A stretch of DNA of 64,000 bases from Chiloscyllium plagiosum (lineage: Eukaryota), in NCBI RefSeq assembly GCF_004010195.1, contig NC_057719.1:27353872-27417871 (forward strand). The letters are read 5' to 3'. Made by a program: the position numbers and the translations under genes. The notes beneath the pieces are model-generated. The model was not told the DNA's origin. It searched no databases and worked only from the letters and a program-made list of their open reading frames with translations. Positions within the stretch are counted from its first letter, which is position 1; every line of letters starts with the position of its first letter. Of this stretch, positions 13,708-61,764 are shown piece by piece.

Positions 13708-14663
13708 GGTGCGAATGAAATCAAGTCTCACCATTTCTACAGTCACCACAAAAGTGAAAACTTAGCGAAATTGCCACAAATCCCATTGTGCCACTAACTG
13801 ATTGCTATTCAGGATAAATGTAATCTACACCAGGCTCCTTCAATATCAATATAAGAATGACTTATTGTAATATTCTTAACTTTAATGAAAGCAGAAAACA
13901 CATAGGATTTCTAATTTATGCAAGCTAAACTTTAGCCATTTTAAAATTCCCACACTTACACAATCTCAAAGGGAAAAAAAAGACAAAACACGTAATATAA
14001 CAGGAAAGAAGAAAATGTGTGAGAATTCCAGTTCTATGTCATCAGCCCCAACACGGCAAAACTAAATGATTCTCACTCGATTTCCTTTCTTTGATGATGC
14101 TTCAGTATCGCCCAGCGATGATCAGTCTACAGTTTACTATTTACTTGGTCAGAGTGCGATCTCTCTGGTTTTTGGACTTTAGAGTTATTTCTTTCAGTAT
14201 TTCTGAATGTATTTTTCTGCACTATCAACAGAAAATTGGAGAAAGCAACTATACAAGGGAAAGGTAAAGGGGGAAAGGAAAGAACTGCTGTAGTTAATGT
14301 CTCCTTTCATCATTCTCTGTTTAATTTCCCTCACAGGGTCTATGTTAAACTGCAAACTGACCAGATGCTTGTTACTATGCTGAGCTCTCCTGAATCCATA
14401 ACAAATAGTCCATTTTTTTCTAGATTCAATGTATTCAAAAAGGAATTTTGGACTAAATCATACTTTTTCTGCATATGTATAAGTTTCAGAGGTTTTGGAG
14501 AGTATCTTGTGGCATGGTCTAGTGGGATTTCTCACTGTATCGTACCAAACACACCTCATTAACTACCCAGGAGAAAGTGAGAACTGCAGATGCTGGAGAT
14601 CAGAGCTGAAACATGTGTTGCTGGAAAAGCACAGCAGGTCAGGCAGCATCCAAGTAGCAGGAG

Positions 14664-14699
14664 AATCGACGTTTCGGGCATAAGCCCTTCTTCAGGAAT
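14664..14699 (-). ncRNA. Minimal hammerhead ribozyme motif
   Basis: ATTC-CTGAAGA-A-GGGC ttat GCCC-GAAA-CG-TC-GATT; weak stem I. Confidence 0.6.
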
Positions 14700-15546
14700 G
14701 AGGAAGGTGTGCCAAGCAGGCTAAGATAAAAGGTAGGGAGGACGGACTTGGGGGAGGGGTGTTGGGAATCCGATAGGTGGAAGGAGGTTAAGGTGAGGGT
14801 GATAGGCCACAGAGGAGGTGGGTGCGGAGAGGCCGGGAAGAAGATTGCAGGTCAAGAAGGCGGTGCTGAGTCCGAGAGTTGGGACTGAGACAAGGTGGGG
14901 GGAGGGGAAATGAGGAAGCTGGAGAAATTTGCATTCATCCCTTGTGGTTGGAGGGTTCCTTGGCGGAAGATGAGGCGCTCTTCCTCCAGGCATTGTGTTG
15001 CCATGGTCTGGCGATGGAGGAGGCCAAGGACCTGCATGTCCTTGGCAGAGTGGGAGGGGGAGTTAAAGTGTTCAGCCACGGGCGGTTGGGTTGGTTGGTG
15101 TGGGTGTCCCAGAGGTGTTCTCTGAAACGTTCCGTAAGTAGCCGGCCTGTCTCCCCAATGTAGAGGAGGCCACAACAGGTGCAGCGGATGCAGTAAATGA
15201 TGTGAGTGGAGGTGCAGGTGAATTTGTGATGGATATGGAAGGATCCCTTGGGGCCTTGGAGGGAAGCGAGGGGGAGGTGTGGGCGCAGGTTTTGCATTTC
15301 TTGCGGTTGCAGGGGAAGGTGCCTTCTGGATCCAAACAGACGCCACCCCTCCCTTATCAGCATTCCGGAAAGACCACTCCCTCCGCGACTCCCTCGTCAG
15401 GTCCACACCCCCCACCAACCCAACCTCCACTCCCAGCACCTGCAATCTTCTTGGTAAAAACAATGACTGCAGATGCTGGAAACCAGATTCTGGATCAGTG
15501 GTGCTGGAAGAACACAGCAATTCAGGCAGCATCCGACGAGCAGCAA

Positions 15547-15582
15547 AATCGACGTTTCGGGCAAAAGCCCTTCATCAGGAAT
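15547..15582 (-). ncRNA. Minimal hammerhead ribozyme motif
   Basis: ATTC-CTGATGA-A-GGGC tttt GCCC-GAAA-CG-TC-GATT. Confidence 0.6.
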
Positions 15583-16246
15583 AAAGCGACGTTAGGGCTC
15601 CAGCACCACTGATCCAGAATCTGGTTTCCAGAATCTGCAGTCATTGTTTTTACCAAGAAGATTGCAGGTGCTGGGAGTGGAGGTTGGGTTGGTGGGGGGG
15701 TGTGGACCTGACGAGGGAGTCGCGGAGGGAGTGGTCTTTCCGGAATGCTGATAAGGGAGGGGAGGGAAATATATCCTTGGTGATGGTGTCTGTTTGGATC
15801 CAGAAGGCACCTTCCCCTGCAACCACAAGAAATGCAAAACCTGTGCCCACACCTCCCCCCTCGCTTCCCTCCAAGGCCCCAAGGGATCCTTCCATATCCA
15901 TCACAAATTCACCTGCACCTCATTTACTGTATCCGCTGCACCTGATGTGGCCTCCTCTACATTGAGGAGACAGGCCGCCTACTTACGGAACGTTTCAGAG
16001 AACACCTCTGGGACACCCACACCAACCAACCCAACCGCCCGTGGCTGAACACTTTAACTCCCCCTCCCACTCTGCCAAAGACATGCAGGTCCTTGGCCTC
16101 CTCCATCGCCAGGCCACGGCAACACAATGCCTGGAGGAAGAGCGCCTCATCTTTCGCCAAGGAACCCTCCAACCACAAGGGATGAATGCAGATTTCTCCA
16201 GCTTCCTCATTTCCCCTCCCCCCACCTTGTCTCAGTCCCAGGCTTT

Positions 16247-16282
16247 ATTCCTGATGAAGGGCTTTTGCCCGAAACGTCGATT
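16247..16282 (+). ncRNA. Minimal hammerhead ribozyme motif
   Basis: ATTC-CTGATGA-A-GGGC tttt GCCC-GAAA-CG-TC-GATT. Confidence 0.6.
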
Positions 16283-16493
16283 TTGCTGCTCGTCGGATGC
16301 TGCCTGAATTGCTGTGCTCTTCCAGCACCACTGATCCAGAACCTGCAATCTTCTTCCCGACCTCTCCGCCCCCATCCCCTCTCTGGCCTATCACCCTCAC
16401 CTTAGCCTCCTTCCACCTATCGGATTCCCAATGCCCCTCCCCCAAGTCCCTACTCCCTACCTTTTATCTTATCCTTTTTGGCACACCTTCCTC

Positions 16494-16529
16494 ATTCCTG
16501 AAGAAGGGCTTATGCCCGAAACGTCGATT
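16494..16529 (+). ncRNA. Minimal hammerhead ribozyme motif
   Basis: ATTC-CTGAAGA-A-GGGC ttat GCCC-GAAA-CG-TC-GATT. Confidence 0.6.
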
Positions 16530-17092
16530 CTCCTGCTCCTTGGATGCTGCCTGACCTGCTGCGCTTTTCCAGCAACACATTTTTCAGCTCATTAACTACC
16601 TACTCTAACAGCTAATTCTATCCTCATCTTACCATACACCATTCCCAGAACCATTTGCCAGTCACTGGGCATCCACAAGAAAATCAACAGTCGTTTCTTT
16701 TGGTACATTTTACACTGTCAATTCACTCTTTTATACTGGCCTGTGCATTTTCATTTACATTCTCAATAAAATATCTTTCCTAGATTCTCAGTTAAGTTGC
16801 ACAATTGATGTTGTCAGATTAGAACCTCAGTAGCAGAAACAACCATCCATATAGATTTTAATATCTAGTTCATTTGACTCTAGGAAAACATAGTTCACAG
16901 TCCAAAATAGATGGGGTCTGTTGAAGTCTTATTAAAAAGTTAAATTTGTGCCTTCAAACATGTTTCTTTACCAGGAGATGGGACATTAGAATGTTTGGAA
17001 CTGCATTTCAAATGGCTGCTGTTATTTTTATATCGGAGTAGTGACCAAAGCTAATTGAAAATCTTTGAAGTGTAATGCAGTTTGGGATGTCC

Positions 17093-18835: not shown

Positions 18836-21800
18836 TGATCACAATAGCCACCATAGTCAGATTCATACATATGGTCCAAGCTGACCCTGCTATCTGCCAC
18901 TCTCTACTCTCGATAACATCTCTCTAGCTTTCAGCTCTGATCATCTGGCCAAAATACTGACAATATTTTGCTGGATGTCACTTTTCAAGTTAGTTATTTT
19001 TGCTGTTGCAATTTCAACCCCACCCCCCTTTCATTTGTCGTATGATCACTATTTGGAAGTTCAGCATATGTCTTGGCATTCACGTTTCAAAGCCCTCGAA
19101 TTTATTCTATAGATTTCTGCTTATTTCTGAAACGTACAGGAAACTAAATTGAATTCACCATCTTAAGATTTTTTTTTCATTGTTACAAGCTCAAGTTTTC
19201 CTTCTTTTAATTCAGCTTAACAAAATGACTTCTTGCCATATCTATTCTTCAAACCTCTGTAATACATCCGTAATCTTCTGGTATCAATTGTCCTAAATGG
19301 ACAGAAGTATGTATTTGTTCCTCACCTCACTTCCATCTCACACACACCTTCCTGTCAGTGATCATTATTATTATGGCTAGTACTCCCTTGAATTATGCAC
19401 ATGAATATCTTCCGTCTTCAAATATATCTCCTTACTCACATTGCCTCCTTCTAACCTATGTAATGTAGTCAAATGAACATAATGGGAAATAAAGAATCTT
19501 AAAACTTGTTTGCATCATGTGTTAAAATTTGTTCATCTCATCCCACCTACATCATGTGTCAAAAGCAGAATTAAGATTATAGTGGGAATCTCTTGATGAA
19601 TTGACATTAATGCTCCACATGAAGTTTCATAGAGTGAAAGATTACTACTGAAAGTAAAGGAAGAATTAGAGTATGTCATTCACATGTGTGTCACTGCAGC
19701 CCTCGACTGCAGTGGAAGAGATTCTTTGCTATGGTAGGATTGTTCCCATTGAAGATCAGACTAGCTCCAACACTGACGTACAAAATTTGTACCATTGCCT
19801 ATTTTCTTTTGAGGAATCAATTTGTGGATGTTCTAAAATAATGCAATTGTATTTTTTTTTACTCCATGTTACCAGTGCCAGAAGCCATGAAGAGAAATCC
19901 CAAAGCAAACTGTATTCTCTTCTCTAGTTCCCTTTTTAACTTCTGTTTATTTTGAAAATGGAAAGACTTGCTGGACACATAAAATGGCTGAGGCTGAATA
20001 TATGATCATATTTTCAGCAGCTTCTGAATACCCTGCATTCTGTAGATATTCCAGCTAAAGGTGACGCACAGGACCTGGATACTGATTCCAGCAAGCTCTG
20101 GCCAAAGGAAGACATCAACACACATGATGCTAAAATGAGCACCGATGCTTTTACAAGTACCTTGTCACCTCGCAGTGCAAACTCTGATCAGGGAGTTAAA
20201 GTTGCACTGTTAGGTCCGCAGCCATCCAGTTAGAATTCAGAGGAAGGCCATCAGCATCTGAAATGGCTGCCCCCGTCACACGATTGAAACCATGACTGGC
20301 TGGATTGCTTAAATATACCTTCTGGATGTCTAAGTCAGTTGTTGTTTGACATCCAGAGGGAAAGCAGGACTTGAGCAGTCTGCCTTGAATCCTCCATCGC
20401 TTTCTCCAAGTTGCTCTCTGGAAAGAAGCGAAAACTATTGGGCCCAGCTCACCACAGAAACTATAATTGAACACTGACCTACAGAAAATTGTAACTCATA
20501 TGAACTGACTTTTTGTTAAAGCTCTCTAGATTTAATAAAACCTGCCATTTTGAACTCATTTCCTTTCTTGTCCTGTCTCCCTTAATTTCCCAAGTGCTTG
20601 TCTGTGTGAAAAGTTAACCACATCCTTATGCATTCCAGGCCAATAAAAATATCTTTGTAACATAGCCTGAGTCTTTTGTACTCCTAGGTGACTTCCTACA
20701 GGTAGTTCATGTGCTACCCATAACACCTCCTGTCTGTATGCTACCGGCAACATCATCTGGTGCACTTCGGCCCATTTCTCCTCTGCGCTAACCTGCCGTG
20801 GTCTCCATTTCCATCTCAGGGTTCTACTTTCAGATAATAACCCTCAGGAATATTCTCTGCCTCCTTTTCAGAGTACATATATATCTTTTATTATCTTGTC
20901 TTGCTGTTGCAAATCCCTTAGCCTCTCAGGACTAAACACTTTTGTCTGACCCTCTGCCTATTCAGGTTACCACACAGTCTGGGAAAATACCAGGGTTCCT
21001 GTTTTAACTCCTCAGCTTCTTGGTCTTCCTTGGGCTTCTCCACAACAAGGGGTATCACTCCCACTTTGGATCCTGCCAAATCATTCCCAAGAACAAACTG
21101 AATTCCTGGAACTGACACTCTGTCAATCACTCCCACTGCAACTTGAGTTGACACTCCAACCTGATCTTACATCGGAGAAGGCTAAATTTCTGTCCATCTA
21201 GCCGACAAATTACCATACTCTCGGGTAATAGATCAGAAAGAGTGCATATTCACTCATCCCTTAATATCAGCGACTGGTTAGATCCTGTATCTCTCAAAAT
21301 TATAACTTCTTGTCCTTCTCCCCCTGTTCTTTCTGAGTAAACTTTACCCACAGACGCCAATTCTTTGCAGAGATCAGGTACTAACTCCATATCCAGCCCC
21401 TGCCCGGCTGTTCTCTCTTCTGCAGCTCCACAGCTCTTCTTGGGGTCTCCTTTATTACCTTCATTAATGCCACTGGCTTAGCTTCTTTGACCACATCTTT
21501 TCCCACAGTGCCTTTCTTTAACAACCAGCGCTGTGACTTTACATGTCCCACTTTACCACAGTGGAAACACCTGAGGCCTTTCACCCTCTTGGGCATCATT
21601 TTTAAACTGTGGTAAATTCTTACCAGTGTTTTCTATTCTTGATTTCGTAGTGTAGGATCTCCCCTTCTCCCAACTTCTATCCCTCACAGGCAGAATTCTG
21701 GCCTGCAGCTTGTCTTATGCGCCAGCAAGTACTCATCTGTTAATTCTGCTGCCCTTCTCACTTCCTGAACTTTCTGTTCCTCCATGTGAATTCTTACCAT

Positions 21801-22802
21801 CTCTGGAAGTGAGTTTTTAAATCTTTCTTGGAGCCTCAAAGGTCCTATTTTCAAAGCACGCACCCATTGATCAAAATGACTACATTTAATTCTTTTGAAC
21901 TTAACATAGGTCTGACCAGGTTACTTATTTATGTTTCTGAACCACTGTCTATACGCTTCTGATACCAATTCATAAGCACTTAAAATAACCTGTTTAACCA
22001 CTTCATAATCTCTTGACCCCTCATGTGACAGTGCGGCAAATACCTCACTAGCTCTGCCTACCAGTTTAGTCTGAACTAGCACTACCCATAAATCCTTGGG
22101 CCACTCCATCTGCCCAGCCAATTTTTCAAACAAAATAAAGAAGGCTTCAACAGCTTTTCATCAAAATGTGGCAAACTTTTGACATTTTTTATATATAACG
22201 ACCTTCTCTTTTAATCTCCATCCTATTAATTTGACTTTGCTTAATAAAGTGCAACTTCTTAAATTCAAATTTTCTCTCTTTTTATTCAGCTAAGAACCTT
22301 CTCTCTCTTTATCCTCTATCTCTCTCCTTCTCTCTCCTCTCTCTCTCTTTCTCCCTTTCTTCTCTCTCTTTGCTCATCTGAGAACCTTCTCTCTCTCTCT
22401 CTTCCCTCTCTCTCCACTGTCTTACAGTCTCTTTCTCTCTCCCTTTGTTTACCTTCTAACTCCATTTTCCTCAATTGTTACTTACGTTTTTCTAACTACT
22501 GCACTTGTCTGTTTCTCTGACACACCTACGTGTTTGAGTAACTCCCTTACAATTTCAGCTTTACTTTTGTCCTTGGTTAAACCCAAATCTAACTTCTTTG
22601 TTCATTCTAAAAGTATGGCCTTTTTCTTTCCTTCTAAGCTTTCTTAGCAAATTTGAGAATCATCTTCAAATCCCAGAATCTCTTTAGCAATTTTAAGAGG
22701 CATTTCTCTCACTTTTAATTTAATCAAACGCAAGTCACCAAAATTTAATAAATTGTCTCACTTACGTTTTATTTGAAGATCTGGGACCCCCAGCCTGCAA
22801 GT

Positions 22803-22948
22803 GTTTAAATCTGCTGGGATGTTTCATACCTCCAAATCTATTCAAATCTGTCTAAACCAGTTCAAATCACAAATCCAAGAACCAAACTGTTCAAATCATG
22901 GACAAAAGCCCCCTAAACTGTTCAAATCCCAGCGACGAGCCCCCAAAC
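22803..22948 (-). repeat. Primer binding site (tRNA-Pro) plus four degenerate tandem PBS-like units
   Basis: + strand units start (G)TTCAAATC-like at 22803, 22840, 22860, 22889, 22920; the LTR-proximal unit approximates tRNA-Pro 3' end GTTCAAATCCCGGACGAGCCCCCA. Confidence 0.8.
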
Positions 22949-23666
22949 TGTTACGACATGGGTAAACCCCCTGCATAATTTAAACAAGCAACACAGAAAA
23001 GATTTATCTTGTGCTGTGAAATATCTGTGAAAATTCGAAAGGCCAAGAACTATCCCAAAGGTCATTATTTAACTTAAAAATTAACAACTTTATTTCTTTC
23101 AGTCTAACATAAAATATTAACTAACAACTATTTACAAATCCTTCCTCTAACCTATCTTTTACCTTCCCCTTCTACAATACTAATCTGATAAAACCCCCAA
23201 TTAAAGTTTACCAAAAATTCGCATTTCAAAACCAGCCAGCTGTCGAATCTTCTCTTTGTATCTTCCTCTGTCTTCTTTTCTTCTTCTTAGGGATTATGTT
23301 TTACAGGTCTTTGATAGATAAAGGTATCTTTAAGGGAACTATTCTGCGGGCAGTCTGCATATGTTGGTGGCTTGGCAGTTCTCTTCCAACTGTTCAATTT
23401 TTTTCAGTTTTATACCCCAAAGCATCAAATCGTTTCATTGCGTTAATGTTGTCAAATTCAAACTTGATTGGAGTTTGGTATTTTGGGGCATAGTTTAAAC
23501 TGATTGGCCAAATTCAAATTTGTGTTTTTTTCTCCAGGTAACCAGCTGCACCAGCTGCTGGACCAAAAGATTATATTGCATCTTGTTCAGAACACTTGGT
23601 GCTGTCGGGTAGTTCTGCTAGCTTATCACTTTCTTAAAGGTACAGTAAACCCACATCTTCATAACA
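22949..23666 (-). mobile_element. 5' LTR of the Gmr1-like element (718 bp)
   Basis: Termini TGTTACGA...TCATAACA; PBS immediately adjacent. Confidence 0.88.
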
Positions 23667-27110: not shown

Positions 27111-27920
27111 ATCATCATCATCATTAACGGTTCCTCACAGACCAGGACGACTCTCTCCCAGTCTCAGGCTGAGTCCATAAGTGGCTGTCAAGACCAGTGT
27201 GGCTACCACAGGCTCTGTTACACTTGGGGCAGGTGATGGTTGTGGGAAGGGGGTGGGTGGGATGTTGGTGTGGCAACGCACTCCTTTCCCTCCCACCACT
27301 CCGCCCCCACCCCTGGCTTCCACTTTTCCCTGACAGCAGGTCTCGAGGTGCTTGATGCCTTCCAGGATGCTCCCCCTCCACTCTAGACAGTCTTGGCCCA
27401 GTGATTCCCAGGTGTCTGCGGGAATGCTGCCGGTGAGGCCTTGCGGGTCTCCCTGAAGCGCTTCCTCTGGGGATCAAGGAGTGGGGGTGGCGGGCAGTGG
27501 TCAGTGCTCCGATGCTGGAGATGTTGGCCTGGTCAAGGACACTGCTGTTGGTGCATCTGTCCTCCCAGCGGGTTGGCGGGATTTTGCGCAGGCGGTGTTG
27601 GTGGGACTACTCCAGCCCCTTGAGGTGTCCACATCTCAGAGCCCTATAGGGGGGTCCGAACCACCACAGCTCTGTACCATGATCTTGGTGTCAAATCTTA
27701 TGTTGTTATCCTCCAACACCCTTGCTGTTGGTGCATCTGTCCTCCCAGCGGGTTGGCGGGATTTTGCGCAGGCGGTGTTGGTGGGACTACTCCAGCCCCT
27801 TGAGGTGTCCACATCTCAGAGCCCTATAGGAGGGTCCGAACCACCACAGCTCTGTACCATGATCTTGGTGTCGGATCTGATGTTGTTATCCTCCAACACC
27901 CTTTTCTTAAGCTTGAGCCT
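27111..27920 (-). mobile_element. RTE-clade LINE 3' end
   Basis: KRVLED..I..DTKIMV/RAVV..TLL*GSE.WT; C-terminal CPKCNRACGSHTGLDSHL; (TGA)n tail at 27111-27124. Confidence 0.85.
27543..27902. repeat. 180-bp tandem duplication within the RTE
   Basis: 27543-27722 vs 27723-27902, 4 differences. Confidence 0.95.
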
Positions 27921-55982: not shown

Positions 55983-57018
55983 ATAACTGAATTGCCAAGC
56001 CATCTTCCTTGTTCATAGACACCTCCTCTTTCTGTCTAATTATAAAGGCCTGTGATCGAGTCACATGGTCAGGAACAATCTAGGATATTCCTTCCATAGA
56101 ATTTCTTTTCCTTCTACTGGTTGTTCCAACACAGTTATGGATGCCAATGTTTTAGAACTAGCCAGGACCTTCTCCAAGATAAAATCAATTCCTTCTAAAG
56201 GGATTTATTGCACTACTGCAATTCAATTTCTCCATTTATTAAGTTACTCCTCTTAGAGTCATAAAGTTATACAACATAGAAACAGGCCCTTTGGCTCATC
56301 TGATCTATGCTGACCAACAAATACAAACCATATGAATCTCATTTGCCTGCATTTGCCGACTATGTCCTGGCATTGTAAGTGCTCATCCAGATGCTTTTTA
56401 AATGCTGTGAGAGAATCTGTTTCCATCACCCTCTCAGGTTCCATTTATTGACTACCCGCAGGGTGAAGAAATTTTTTTCTCAGATCTCCTCTAAATCACT
56501 TGCTCCTCACCTTAAACATATGCTCTCTGGTCTTAGATGCCTCTGCCAAAGGAAACCGATTCTCACAATCTATTCTGCCTATGCCTCTCATAATTTTGAA
56601 TACTTCAGTCAGATTCCCCCTCAGCCTTCTCTGCTCCAAGGAAAACAAGCCCAGCCTATCCAGTCTCTCCTCATAACTGAGATTTTTCATCACAGGCAAT
56701 ATCCTGGTAAATATCCTCTGCGTCCTCTCCAGAGCAATCACATCTTTCCAATAATGTGGTGACCAACCTGCTCACAGTGTTCGATCTGTAACCAAACCAA
56801 TGTTTTATAAATTTGTAACAACATTTCCCTACTCCTATATTCTAGGCCCTACCCTAACAAAGGCAAGCACCCCATATGCCTTCTTCACCACCCTGTCTGC
56901 ATGTGCTATCACCTTCATGAATCTATAGGTTTGTACACTAAGGTCCCTTTGTTCCTCTGTACTCCCTCAAGACCTAAATTTCGCTGTGGTTCTGTTCGCC
57001 GAGCTGGAAGTTTTTGTT

Positions 57019-57058
57019 GCAAACGTTTCGTCCCCTGTCTAGGTGACATCCTCAGTGC
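57019..57058 (-). ncRNA. Minimal hammerhead motif
   Basis: GCA-CTGAGGA-T-GTCACCT agac AGGGGAC-GAAA-CG-TT-TGC. Confidence 0.7.
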
Positions 57059-58197
57059 TTGGGAGCCTCCTGTGAAGCGCTTCTGTGGTGTTTCCTCCGG
57101 CATTTATAGTGGCCTGTCCCTGTCGCTTCTGGTTGTCAGTTTCAGCTGTCCGCTGTAGTGGCCGGTATATTGGGTCCAGGTCGATGTGTTTGTTGATGGA
57201 GTTTGTGGATAAGTGCCATGCTTCTAGGAATTCCCTGGCTGTTCTTTGTTTCACTTGCCCTATAATGGTAATGTTGTCCCAGTCAAATTCATATTGCTTG
57301 TCGTCTGCGTGTGTGGCTATTAGGGATAGCTGGTCATGTCGATTCGTGGCTCATTGATGTTCGTGGATGTGGATCGTTAGCTGTCTTCCTGTTTGTCCTA
57401 TATAGTGTTTTGTGCAGTCCTTGCATGGGATTTTGTACACTACATTAGTTTTGCTCATGCTGGGTATCGGGTCCTTCGTTTTGGTGAGTTGTTGTCTGAG
57501 AGTGGCTGTTGGTTTGTGTGCTGTTATAAGTCCTAGTGGTCGCAGTAGTCTGGCTGTCATTTCAGAGATGGTGCAGAACTGCAAAAAGAGGAAGAGGAAC
57601 ACCTACACAAGGTATTCGCAAAAAACGGATATCCTTGCAATTTCATCAACAGATGCCTAAGGGAAAGACAACAGAACGAGGACATGCCGCAACCCAAAGG
57701 ACTAGCCACACCACCATACGTCAAGAACATCTCTGAAATGACAGCCACACTACTGCGACCACTAGGACTTATAACAGCACACAAACCAACAGCCACTCTC
57801 AGACAACAACTCACCAAAACGAAGGACCCGATACCCAACATGAGCAAAACTAATGTAGTGTACAAAATACCATGCAAGGACTGCACAAAACACTATATAG
57901 GACAAACAGGAAGACAGCTAACGATCCGCATCCAAGAACATCAACTAGCCACGAAACGACACGACCAGCTATCCCTAATAGCCACACACGCAGACGACAA
58001 GCAACATGAATTTGACTGGAACAACACTACCATTATAGGGCAAGCGAAACAAAGAACAGCCAGGGAATTCCTAGAAGAATGGCACTCATCCACAAACTCC
58101 ATCAACAAACACATAGACCTGGACACAATATACCGGCCACTACAGCGGACAGCTGAAACTAACAACCGGAAGCGGCAGGGACAGGCCACTAAAAATG

Positions 58198-58798
58198 NNN
58201 NNNNNNNNNNNNNNNNNNNNNNNNNNNNNNNNNNNNNNNNNNNNNNNNNNNNNNNNNNNNNNNNNNNNNNNNNNNNNNNNNNNNNNNNNNNNNNNNNNNN
58301 NNNNNNNNNNNNNNNNNNNNNNNNNNNNNNNNNNNNNNNNNNNNNNNNNNNNNNNNNNNNNNNNNNNNNNNNNNNNNNNNNNNNNNNNNNNNNNNNNNNN
58401 NNNNNNNNNNNNNNNNNNNNNNNNNNNNNNNNNNNNNNNNNNNNNNNNNNNNNNNNNNNNNNNNNNNNNNNNNNNNNNNNNNNNNNNNNNNNNNNNNNNN
58501 NNNNNNNNNNNNNNNNNNNNNNNNNNNNNNNNNNNNNNNNNNNNNNNNNNNNNNNNNNNNNNNNNNNNNNNNNNNNNNNNNNNNNNNNNNNNNNNNNNNN
58601 NNNNNNNNNNNNNNNNNNNNNNNNNNNNNNNNNNNNNNNNNNNNNNNNNNNNNNNNNNNNNNNNNNNNNNNNNNNNNNNNNNNNNNNNNNNNNNNNNNNN
58701 NNNNNNNNNNNNNNNNNNNNNNNNNNNNNNNNNNNNNNNNNNNNNNNNNNNNNNNNNNNNNNNNNNNNNNNNNNNNNNNNNNNNNNNNNNNNNNNNNN
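58198..58798. other. Assembly gap (601 N)
   Basis: Run of N. Confidence 1.
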
Positions 58799-58942
58799 AC
58801 TCTATCAACAAACACATCTACCTGGACCCAATATACCGGCCACTACAGCGGACAGCTGAAACTGACAACCGGAAGCGGCAGGGACAGGCCACTATAAATG
58901 CCGGAGGAAACACCACAGAAGCGCTTCACAGGAGGCTCCCAA

Positions 58943-58982
58943 GCACTGAGGATGTCACCTCGACAGGGGACGAAACGTTTGC
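58943..58982 (+). ncRNA. Minimal hammerhead motif
   Basis: GCA-CTGAGGA-T-GTCACCT cgac AGGGGAC-GAAA-CG-TT-TGC; stem I GCA/TGC. Confidence 0.7.
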
Positions 58983-61764
58983 AACAAAAACTTCCAGCTC
59001 GGCAAACAGAACCACAGCAACGAGCACCCGAGCTACAAATCTTCTCACAAACTTTGAACACCTAAAATTCATTGTGTATGCCCTTCCCTTGGTAGGTCTC
59101 CCAAAATGTTTCACCCCATACAAATTGGGATTAAATTCCATCTGCTATTGCTGTGCCCAGTTTACCAGCTGATCAACATTAGACTGTAGTCTGAGACCAT
59201 CCTCCTCAGTATCAACAACACCACCAATTTTCATCTGGAAACTTATTGGTTAAACCTTCTCCATTCACATCCAAATCGTTAATGTAGATAGCAAACTGCA
59301 AGGGTCCCAACACCTATCCCTGTGGTATATTGATGGTCATAGACTTCCAAATACAAAAACACCATCACTCTTGCCTCCTATTTGTACATCAATTTTGGGT
59401 CCAGTTGGGCCAACTTGCCTTGAATCCTTTGGGTTCTTACCTTTTGAACCAGTCTTCCACGTGGGATCTTGTCAAATGCCTCAGTGAAGTCCATGCGAAC
59501 CAAATCAACAGCACTACCCTCTTCAAAAATGTAATCACATTTTCATAAAAGCTCAAATAAATTAGTCAGATAAGTTGTCCCTCTAACAAATCAATGCTGA
59601 CAACCCCCGATCAGTCTCTGCCTTTCTATCATTCAGAACTTTTTCCAATAACTTCCTTACCACTGACATCAAACAAACTGGCCTGTAATTATCTGGTCCA
59701 TCCCAGCTGCCCTTCCTGAACAAGGGACCCACATTAGCTATTCTCCAGTCATCTGGCATTTCACATGTGGCCAGCAAGGTATTAGTTATCTTCCTCAAAA
59801 CCCCAGCAAACTCCTCCCTTACTTCCCATGGCAGCCAACTACTGGGGATTTGTGGACCTGTATGCATGTTAAAATGACTATTTCTCCTTATTTGTATTAA
59901 CATGTTCTAGAACCTCACACTCCCATTTGAAATCCCCAGCTATAATATTTTTCTTCTCTGTGAATACAGATGAGAAATATTCATTTAAGACCTCAACCAC
60001 TTCCATTGGTTCAATGCACAGGTTGCCTCTTTGGTCTCCAATAGATCCTACCTTTTCCCTGATAATCCTTTTACTTTTAATTATAAAAAGCCTTGGTTTT
60101 TTTATTCCATCTGCCAAAAGTATTTCAAGGCCCCTCTTTGCTCTCCTAATTTCCTTTTTAAGCTATTCCTAAACTCTTTATACTTTCGAAGGGCCTCCCC
60201 TCTTTTTAGTACAATTAATATGAATCAAATGGAAGACAAGTATTACCTTTCACCAGCATCAGCCACTGACTTGCTCCAGTATCTTTATTTGTTTACCTCC
60301 TTGACTAGAAATATATGAAAATACTGCTCTTTATGAAATAAAATATTCAGAACCTCCAATGGTTTTATTCTCTTTATCATTAATTCAGGAAGAACCTTGT
60401 TAACTGCCCTGACTCACCTTTCCCTTCCGAATAGATTCTCGGGGAACATGATCCATCTGTACTGCAGCTACATGTTTAATACACATTGCCTTTCCTGGCA
60501 TACTCTTTTCTAGGGATTCCTAAGACTGCAATCAGTATCCCATTTAATTTCCAACCAATGGCTTTGTTACATCCAGTAAAATTCTGATGGAAACATATTA
60601 TTTTCTTTACATGACTTTTGAATACTTATATTATTAACTAATCTCATGTTCAGGTTGCTATTATCCCAGTTGCCAGCGAGAGATTATTTGGCATTAATTC
60701 CCAACTTGAAAGGCAGAGTGGAAGCCTGGTGGCTAAAGCTAGCAAGCATCTTCTCTGGGCTCCCATGCTGGCCAGCGTTTCCCAATATCTCCGAGCTTGG
60801 TCCATGGGCAACAGCTAGCTTTACTCTCATCCTCGAAAGTTAGCATTGACAAGGCACTTTCCGACTGCCCTCCTGGCACTGCTGAGTACAAGTTTCACAA
60901 GAGCAGCACCATGGAGCCATGGCCTAATTCATGAAGCTACTTGTGCAGACGTGCGTGAATAAACGTGCAAGGGCTCACTGAGGGAAATCCTCCATGAAAC
61001 GCCCCAAAACAGAGAATTACTGGAAATATGAGAACATTCAGTCGTTCCAGAAGAGTCTTAGCATCAATCAAAGCCATTTTGAAATTCCAAACTATGCTAC
61101 AACAAGATACCTGTTTTTTTAAACCAGAATCTCCATGTACTCATTCCTTGAGAAGAACTGCAGATCCCTCTTAGTTCAATAAGTTCTTATCCTGCTCTGT
61201 GCCGTACACTTTGTTAGGACGCCAGCTGATCCCAGAATGAAACTTGGCTTGATTAGATCAGAGGTTTCATTTCTGCTGATAATTACCATGGATTTTAGTA
61301 AATTAAACATATTCAGAAAGCTCGTTAACGAAAGAACATAAGTTTGTTACGTAAAAGAACAACAAATAAGCTGTATATGTGAAATTTGAAAATATTTCAA
61401 CATAAACAACAAAACCAAACCTATTTTCCTGGAACTTCTTTTCCAGTTAATCAATCCCAGAGAAATATCACTCCTCTATTAACGTTAAAATTCCTTACTC
61501 AACTATTTCCAGATTTATTTTCCAAATAATTTCCAGTACCGACAGCCAAGAGACTTCAATAATGTCTCATATTCTGGAGATTCTACAAATCCAACAAACC
61601 AACCAAATGGTTGAATGAAGCTGCACTCTTGAAAGTAAAATTTAACTCTTCTCAAACTGTTAGTTTCCCCAGGATTATTTTCTCCGTATGTCATAAATGT
61701 TCACAGTGTAAACACCTAATCAGTTCACAATGCAGGCTCTGTTTCATATACAGAAGTGCTCTTA

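Follow-up and report, generated by a model that had tools for sequence, protein, structure and literature searches.

A variable array of probable tRNA-Pro primer-site variants beside the LTR of a Gmr1-like retrotransposon in Chiloscyllium plagiosum

The window analysed here, a 64,000-nt stretch of the Chiloscyllium plagiosum genome, contains a truncated LTR retrotransposon on its minus strand. The 5′ LTR (22949..23666) has TGTTA...TAACA ends, and coverage by 126 family loci stops at 23666. Inward of the LTR lie a 3-nt spacer read from the sequence (22946..22948), five short tandem units, a constant leader of about 100 nt reaching from the array to the start of gag (22704..22802), and decayed gag, protease region and integrase start (20600..22703), whose translation carries stops. 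The gag gene begins near 22703 and is broken by stops, the element is truncated at about 20600, inside integrase, and no second LTR of this element was found within the 64-kb window. Elsewhere in the window, long, almost perfect nested inverted repeats (94–97%) were noted at 57101-58197, 56983-59018 and 14603-16590, the last sitting amid recurrent interspersed repeats, as well as a 180-bp tandem repeat at 27543-27903 with two copies of 97% identity.

Similarity search yielded 3937 candidate loci for this family in the genome. Pfam searches of natural open stretches in relatives identified a SCAN domain (PF02023, E=3.9e-08) in copy L331, H2C2, rve and p58_C in copy L314, and RVT_1 followed by RT_RNaseH ahead of the 3′ LTR in L325 and L329, so that integrase lies upstream of reverse transcriptase (RT) and RNase H in the order typical of Gmr1. 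Copies with two LTRs have LTR ends identical to those of the window LTR, along with 4-bp target duplications and a polypurine tract; the LTR pairs within such copies are 79–89% alike, and the 4-bp duplications were found in L325, L329 and L331. By domain order, gag and LTR features, the window element is a member of an abundant, old and dead Gmr1-like Ty3/gypsy family. The SCAN gag, integrase-before-RT order, paired LTRs and target duplications of the relatives bear out the original prediction, made from the sequence alone, that the array adjoins a Gmr1-like LTR. A SCAN-like gag, integrase upstream of RT, TG..CA LTR ends and a tRNA primer site are the features given for Gmr1-like Ty3/gypsy elements in the accessible parts of earlier reports (PMC3587641, PMC4592553), and the window family has this gag type, integrase-RT order, LTR ends and tRNA primer site in common with them. 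The family was also matched in sequencing runs of three other species, with array skips of 60–68 nt in runs of two other species. No RNA data set was listed as containing the family, and one RNA run gave 32 reads, every one less than 95% alike and hence uninformative on expression.

Matches to the motif RTTYAAATC start at 22803, 22840, 22860, 22889 and 22920, and 5 of the 13 matches in the window thus fall within 126 bp, compared with 4.75 expected over the whole 64 kb. The five tandem motif-led units first read from the sequence are thereby confirmed, and their differing middles agree with the sequence as quoted at the time. The LTR-proximal unit 1 (22920..22945, minus strand) is a site of type A, with a 2-nt insertion and a complement of the T loop behind it; as predicted, it corresponds to the tRNA-Pro 3′ end with an insertion of two bases, and AAC separates it from the LTR, which ends at 22949. 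This 3′ end is common to 17 of the 18 Pro genes found in the genome, and the insertion sets the window site apart from the canonical perfect 18-nt Pro complement. Unit 2 with its linker (22889..22919) is a Pro site of type C, a type that is LTR-proximal in other copies. Unit 3 with its linker (22860..22888) is of type D, decayed and nearer to type B than to any tRNA. Unit 4 (22840..22859) consists of two repeats of about 10 bp of a T-loop-like motif and lacks a CCCA end, which refines the original reading; a longer form (X) of this unit is present in one subfamily. Unit 5 (22803..22839) includes an AATCT linker, which departs from the AACT-like linkers correctly noted elsewhere in the array. 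The junction after unit 3 is identical to the LTR junction, in agreement with the claim that one junction joins units and LTR; the commonest junction between primer site and LTR in the family is AAACTG (59 copies).

Comparison of the units with tRNA ends made use of a library from the host genome that is incomplete, with 33 ends for 9 amino acids and one true Gln gene. Some tRNA genes among loci L283-L312 combine a Pro-type 3′ end with an anticodon that ARAGORN calls as Gln(ttg) or Val(cac). Apparent “Gln” best matches of units 1 and 3 were likely mostly due to a Pro-bodied gene with a changed anticodon, and were merged with Pro thereafter. Unit 1 matched Pro best (P=0.001 against shuffles), unit 2 was borderline (P=0.06), and units 3, 4 and 5 gave P=0.95, 0.99 and 0.49 against shuffles with the 33-end library. 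Intact A, B and C units match Pro (P<=0.004 against shuffles), and the Pro score of intact C units was exceeded in 0 of 500 shuffles; the view of unit 2 as a decayed Pro copy agrees with this for its type, the window copy itself staying at the borderline. Across 28 five-unit arrays, the median Pro score falls from the LTR inward as 19, 12, 5, -3 and -1.5 (of 30); in the same order, shuffles are outscored by 21/28, 4/28, 1/28, 0/26 and 0/28 copies.

The array had been proposed to record, in polarised order, a succession of primer tRNAs used in the past (Pro, Trp, Gln), with a Gln-like distal unit and a Trp-like unit 3. Type B does start with 12 Trp-like nt, one form of C with 13 Gln-like nt, and window unit 1 with 15 Thr-like nt; the likenesses of B and C, however, require only a single change at position 62, a position at which each of the three other bases is found, and whole units fit Pro far better. 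The chance that distal units match tRNA ends no better than shuffled sequences, anticipated in the original prediction, is what was found for units 3–5 with the 33 ends and 9 amino acids of the library. Unit 3 shows no tRNA match above shuffles, and the end of unit 5 on which the Gln likeness turned is nearly private to the window copy, ACCTCCA having been counted once against 22 ACCCCCA and 13 TACCCCA. Assignments of units to Gln, Trp or Thr were accordingly rejected. Since neither the Gln nor the Trp matches exceed those of shuffled sequences, the array is not a record of different primers, and we consider such a reading very unlikely. All units that can be assigned are tRNA-Pro sites, and most of them contain a 2-nt insertion. 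Exact Pro sites with T-loop extension make up 8 of 179 genome-wide, and 7 of the 8 belong to the window family.

Variation among copies was assessed with an anchor outside the array, a leader motif with 340 exact matches in the genome, of which 90 were read, 5 proving unreadable and 85 readable; unit labels were assigned by hand, with 5 disagreements with an automatic parse. Most readable copies (75/85) carry a constant head, equivalent to units 5 and 4, and one site unit; six carry two site units and four carry three. Unit number thus varies between copies, as the original prediction had suggested checking, and the identical array fixed in all members that it had envisaged as the opposite case does not exist. 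A fixed five-unit array had been suggested by a first similarity search, in which five-unit copies dominate the best matches because the window query selects for them, and was abandoned in favour of the outside anchor. In the 85 readable copies, the outermost site is of type A in 35, B in 30, C in 9 and P in 9, with 2 unclear. The tRNA-length form is P, found in only these 9 of the 85; A, B and C are each 2 nt longer, with the extra bases placed differently. Among arrays with several site units, the orders D-C-A, D-C-P, D-A, D-P, D-B, B-A, D-C, A-A, D-A-P and A-C-P were observed from inner to outer, together with D-A followed by a C/P-like unit; type D was never outermost in these orders, and A and C occur in both relative orders. 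In copy L165, the whole array and the first LTR bases are locally duplicated in tandem.

The tRNA-length unit stands at the LTR side in all 41 ordinary arrays that contain it and is never inner, and type B does so in 30 of 30 viewed units (46 matches in all). The 41 P arrays include four near-identical duplicates. Four near-identical D-C-P copies (L399-L401, L409), three of them inside 25 kb of one contig, likely reflect segmental duplication. A targeted search for arrays in which a further unit follows an A or P unit produced 14 matches, among which neither an inner P nor four site units occurred. New units had been expected always to be LTR-proximal: this is true of exact tRNA-length units (41/41), but a strict order is not supported, given arrays such as A-C-P, D-A-P, B-A and A-A. 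In the five copies for which the end of the 3′ LTR was viewed, it is never followed by a primer unit. Since 3′ LTRs carry no primer unit there, unit 1 is likely the working priming site, and the inner units likely did not prime. The D-C copy L219 could be a case of a re-exposed unit.

One reading of this variation invokes neutral slippage between short AAC/GTT repeats, with decay and deletion from one long ancestor, and neither selection nor ordered growth. Unit 4 plainly derives from short-repeat slippage, arrays of the form D-C-x prevail among the long ones, and single-A copies are sister to D-C-A copies on the LTR tree, which fits collapse of a longer array. However, neighbours within an array differ in allele type, every one of these types serving as an outer site elsewhere, and orders such as D-A-P, A-C-P, B-A, A-A and D-B exist. 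Moreover, copy L108 (B-A) nests within the B clade of the LTR tree with support 100, and therefore represents a gain on the LTR side; and the recurrence of three different 2-nt insertions, along with the mismatched site, 1 nt longer, of a sister family described below, also argues against slippage, which we judge unlikely. In L190 and L196, the linker that closes the inner A unit is the one typical of the C-to-A junction instead of the LTR linker; these units, like the B-A array of L108, suggest homologous switching onto a long array that already existed. Gains and losses are not countable because the flank trees are poorly resolved, the leader tree being star-like and the LTR tree, computed in quick mode, containing mosaic haplotypes.

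On balance, the array is probably a variable stack of Pro primer-site variants, of which only the LTR-adjacent unit is likely to have primed, the inner ones being likely retired, rarely extended on the LTR side and often reshuffled or collapsed. Type D and units 4 and 5 are assignable to no tRNA of the library and are likely retired sites as well, to judge by their layout and by the likeness of D to B. New unit orders look like the outcome of template switching between existing arrays.

On the LTR tree, the 18 rows with the P form call for 17 changes, and P hence arose repeatedly. All 49 matches to a P pattern were viewed: 41 are ordinary arrays, 7 are long fusions of LTR and tRNA-Pro, and 1 is unrelated, so that 7 of 48 family P matches extend far into the tRNA, beyond the T loop. 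A dedicated pattern for long tRNA-Pro copies gave 19 matches, of which 18 are fused to a family LTR and one is a tRNA retrocopy; the loci with fused copies are L410-L428 except L426, plus L404. Base 58 is changed in 8 of the 18 fusions (7 G, 1 T). Ordinary P units show a change there in 1 of 41 (Fisher p=1.5e-4), and B units in 3 of 46; as position 58 was free in the search pattern, the comparison was made with these ordinary P and B sets instead of neighbouring positions. In 11 of the 19 fused copies, the tRNA part stops at gene index 34–38, with a mode one base 3′ of G37, and two copies extend to the D arm. We take tRNA-Pro to carry m1G37. Errors at m1A58 and m1G37 are known signatures, according to the accessible part of PMC11417395, and the fused tRNA copies are likely genomic fossils of errors and stops induced by tRNA modification. 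Read-through of RT past position 58 into the primer, as originally predicted, did happen in this family. The presence of G at 58 in one P copy had initially been taken as proof of an 18-nt stop; this was dropped, the fusions indicating that G more likely marks read-through. At seven loci (L411, L412, L414, L416, L418, L419, L427), the read-through product abuts a piece of LTR or leader in inverted orientation, which makes a head-to-head structure, and L123 and L426 are tRNA-Pro retrocopies with a CCA end, unattached to a family LTR.

Whether such read-through built the arrays is a separate matter. The original prediction had fresh units added by read-through, and a corresponding reading makes read-through into the T loop of tRNA-Pro, with rejoining at GTT, the main recurring engine, inner units having begun as fresh tRNA copies that mutated later. 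In its favour are the 7 of 48 matches that run far into the tRNA, the start of units 1–3 at G53 with a perfect T-loop motif and the GTTTAAA of unit 5 and the sister family, the G at 58 in the otherwise normal copy L342, and the identity of the junction after D with the LTR junction. The last feature fits read-through, and a jump onto another element RNA would give an equal junction. Against it, no long read-through copy among the 18 rejoined its own array, and inner units are allele types that serve as outer sites in other copies. Furthermore, none of the 41 P arrays has caught a fresh addition onto A or B, for which a P unit would lie outside an intact A or B and be joined to it by a linker of the LTR type, though single A and single B are the commonest arrays. 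Read-through as the main engine is therefore rather unlikely; addition to the array by this route appears to be rare, and reshuffling is likely dominant over it.

A sister family, with 4055 candidates and a gag homologous to that of the window family, gives a view of a simpler arrangement. In most of its copies (loci L253-L282, sites at about 1560–1600) a single mismatched Pro site is found, 1 nt longer, and tRNA-type revertants occur in 6 of 30, the query itself being a revertant. Non-tRNA bases at 53–56 are kept in all six revertants, which argues that read-through is not the rule in this family. Unit 5 and the single site of the sister family have the GTTTAAA start and AATCT linker in common, suggesting that unit 5 is likely the oldest retired primer site; the leader alignment behind this is weak and ambiguous in register (z 0.2–5.1), and the best alignments shown place the sister site further inward. 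A T-loop-like stretch in the leader at 22768-22800 aligns with the site of the sister family and is possibly a sixth, older unit.

Inner units could also have been kept for RNA structure, with an inverted piece of the site in unit 5 folding onto the site and regulating priming. Folding of the window copy pairs the site with unit 5, at 8.6 expected pairs where controls give 0.8; but whole-leader folding gave z=-0.94, and pairing exceeded the control in only 8/24 D-C-A, 6/25 A, 5/22 B and 2/13 P copies. Across the family, folding of unit 5 back onto the site is thus unsupported, with pairing above control in a minority of copies, and a structural role seems extremely unlikely.

For the variable stack of Pro sites, which we prefer, the following mechanism may be proposed. 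In roughly one insertion in ten, copying of the primer during plus-strand synthesis would turn the outer site back into P, and the T-loop complement behind the 18-nt site would allow correct landing of short read-through products, as has been proposed for HIV. Rarely, a strand-end jump at the common GTT/CTGTT onto a read-through tRNA copy or the RNA of another element could add a unit at the LTR side, after which homologous template switching between co-packaged RNAs would swap, add and delete units. The 2-nt insertions were likely favoured if, as we suggest, they blunt host recognition of a perfect Pro site. A more speculative extension, quite unlikely as it stands, is that the leader stores escape alleles of the Pro site as cassettes, a collection to which read-through adds, in which mutation hides the site from host silencing by tRNA fragments or zinc fingers, and from which template switching restores stored alleles. 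If so, the leader would be both a dated record and a reservoir in an arms race between priming and silencing.

Irrespective of this, the family offers a large natural data set on questions studied so far mainly in HIV and mouse retroviruses. With its three 2-nt insertion alleles, it bears on the trade-off at the primer site between priming and silencing; tRNA-type revertants founded no clade in the sampled copies. It also bears on how often RT passes position 58 in vivo, and it demonstrates that a Ty3/gypsy element can inherit primer sequence. If the fused tRNA copies are indeed fossils of modification, ancient germline tRNA modification would be readable from genome sequence alone.

CRISPR arrays are polarised, with the freshest unit at one end, and the window array had been likened to them. 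The likeness is confined to the polarised layout, which stands, as does variation in unit number; a strict order is not supported, A and C occurring both ways. Unlike in CRISPR, unit order appears to have been reshuffled, and the window array involves no dedicated integrase step, foreign spacers, constant repeat-spacer period or sign of guide use. No description of a variable primer-site array was found for Gmr1-like or other elements in the openly accessible papers searched. The nearest parallels come from retroviruses, here taken from those parts of the cited papers that were accessible. In HIV-1 of the MAL type, a partial PBS (primer-binding site) duplication, 23 nt long, lies directly downstream of the working site and is polymorphic among isolates (PMC3185550); whereas this is one partial duplication, the window family has up to three whole sites in several allele types and orders, plus an older head. 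Primer complementarity beyond 18 nt is conserved in lentiviruses, with a second RT stop at position 54 (PMC8599865), and HIV proviruses with tRNA inserts of 7–54 nt have been described as defective products (PMC12657518). Lentiviruses and the window family thus both have a T-loop complement behind the site, and primer read-through fused to the LTR in defective products. The window family differs in that its copies are fossils of a germline retrotransposon, which show a changed base 58 and terminate close to 37, and in repeating the T-loop motif, which is likely a handle for recombination. Drosophila Gypsy has two sites at opposite ends of its genome, an arrangement not comparable to the window array (PMC1635307). 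In the mouse elements ETn, MusD and IAP, the commonest PBS alleles mismatch the tRNA and perfect revertants are dispersed over the tree, escape from tRNA fragments having been proposed to explain the mismatched sites of mouse retroviruses; Ty1 and Ty3, in contrast, strictly inherit their own site (PMC7472051, in the part available). The window family, itself of the Ty3/gypsy type, departs from such strict inheritance by its tRNA-type revertants, and resembles the mouse elements in its mismatched sites and scattered revertants, while additionally stacking its alleles in cis.
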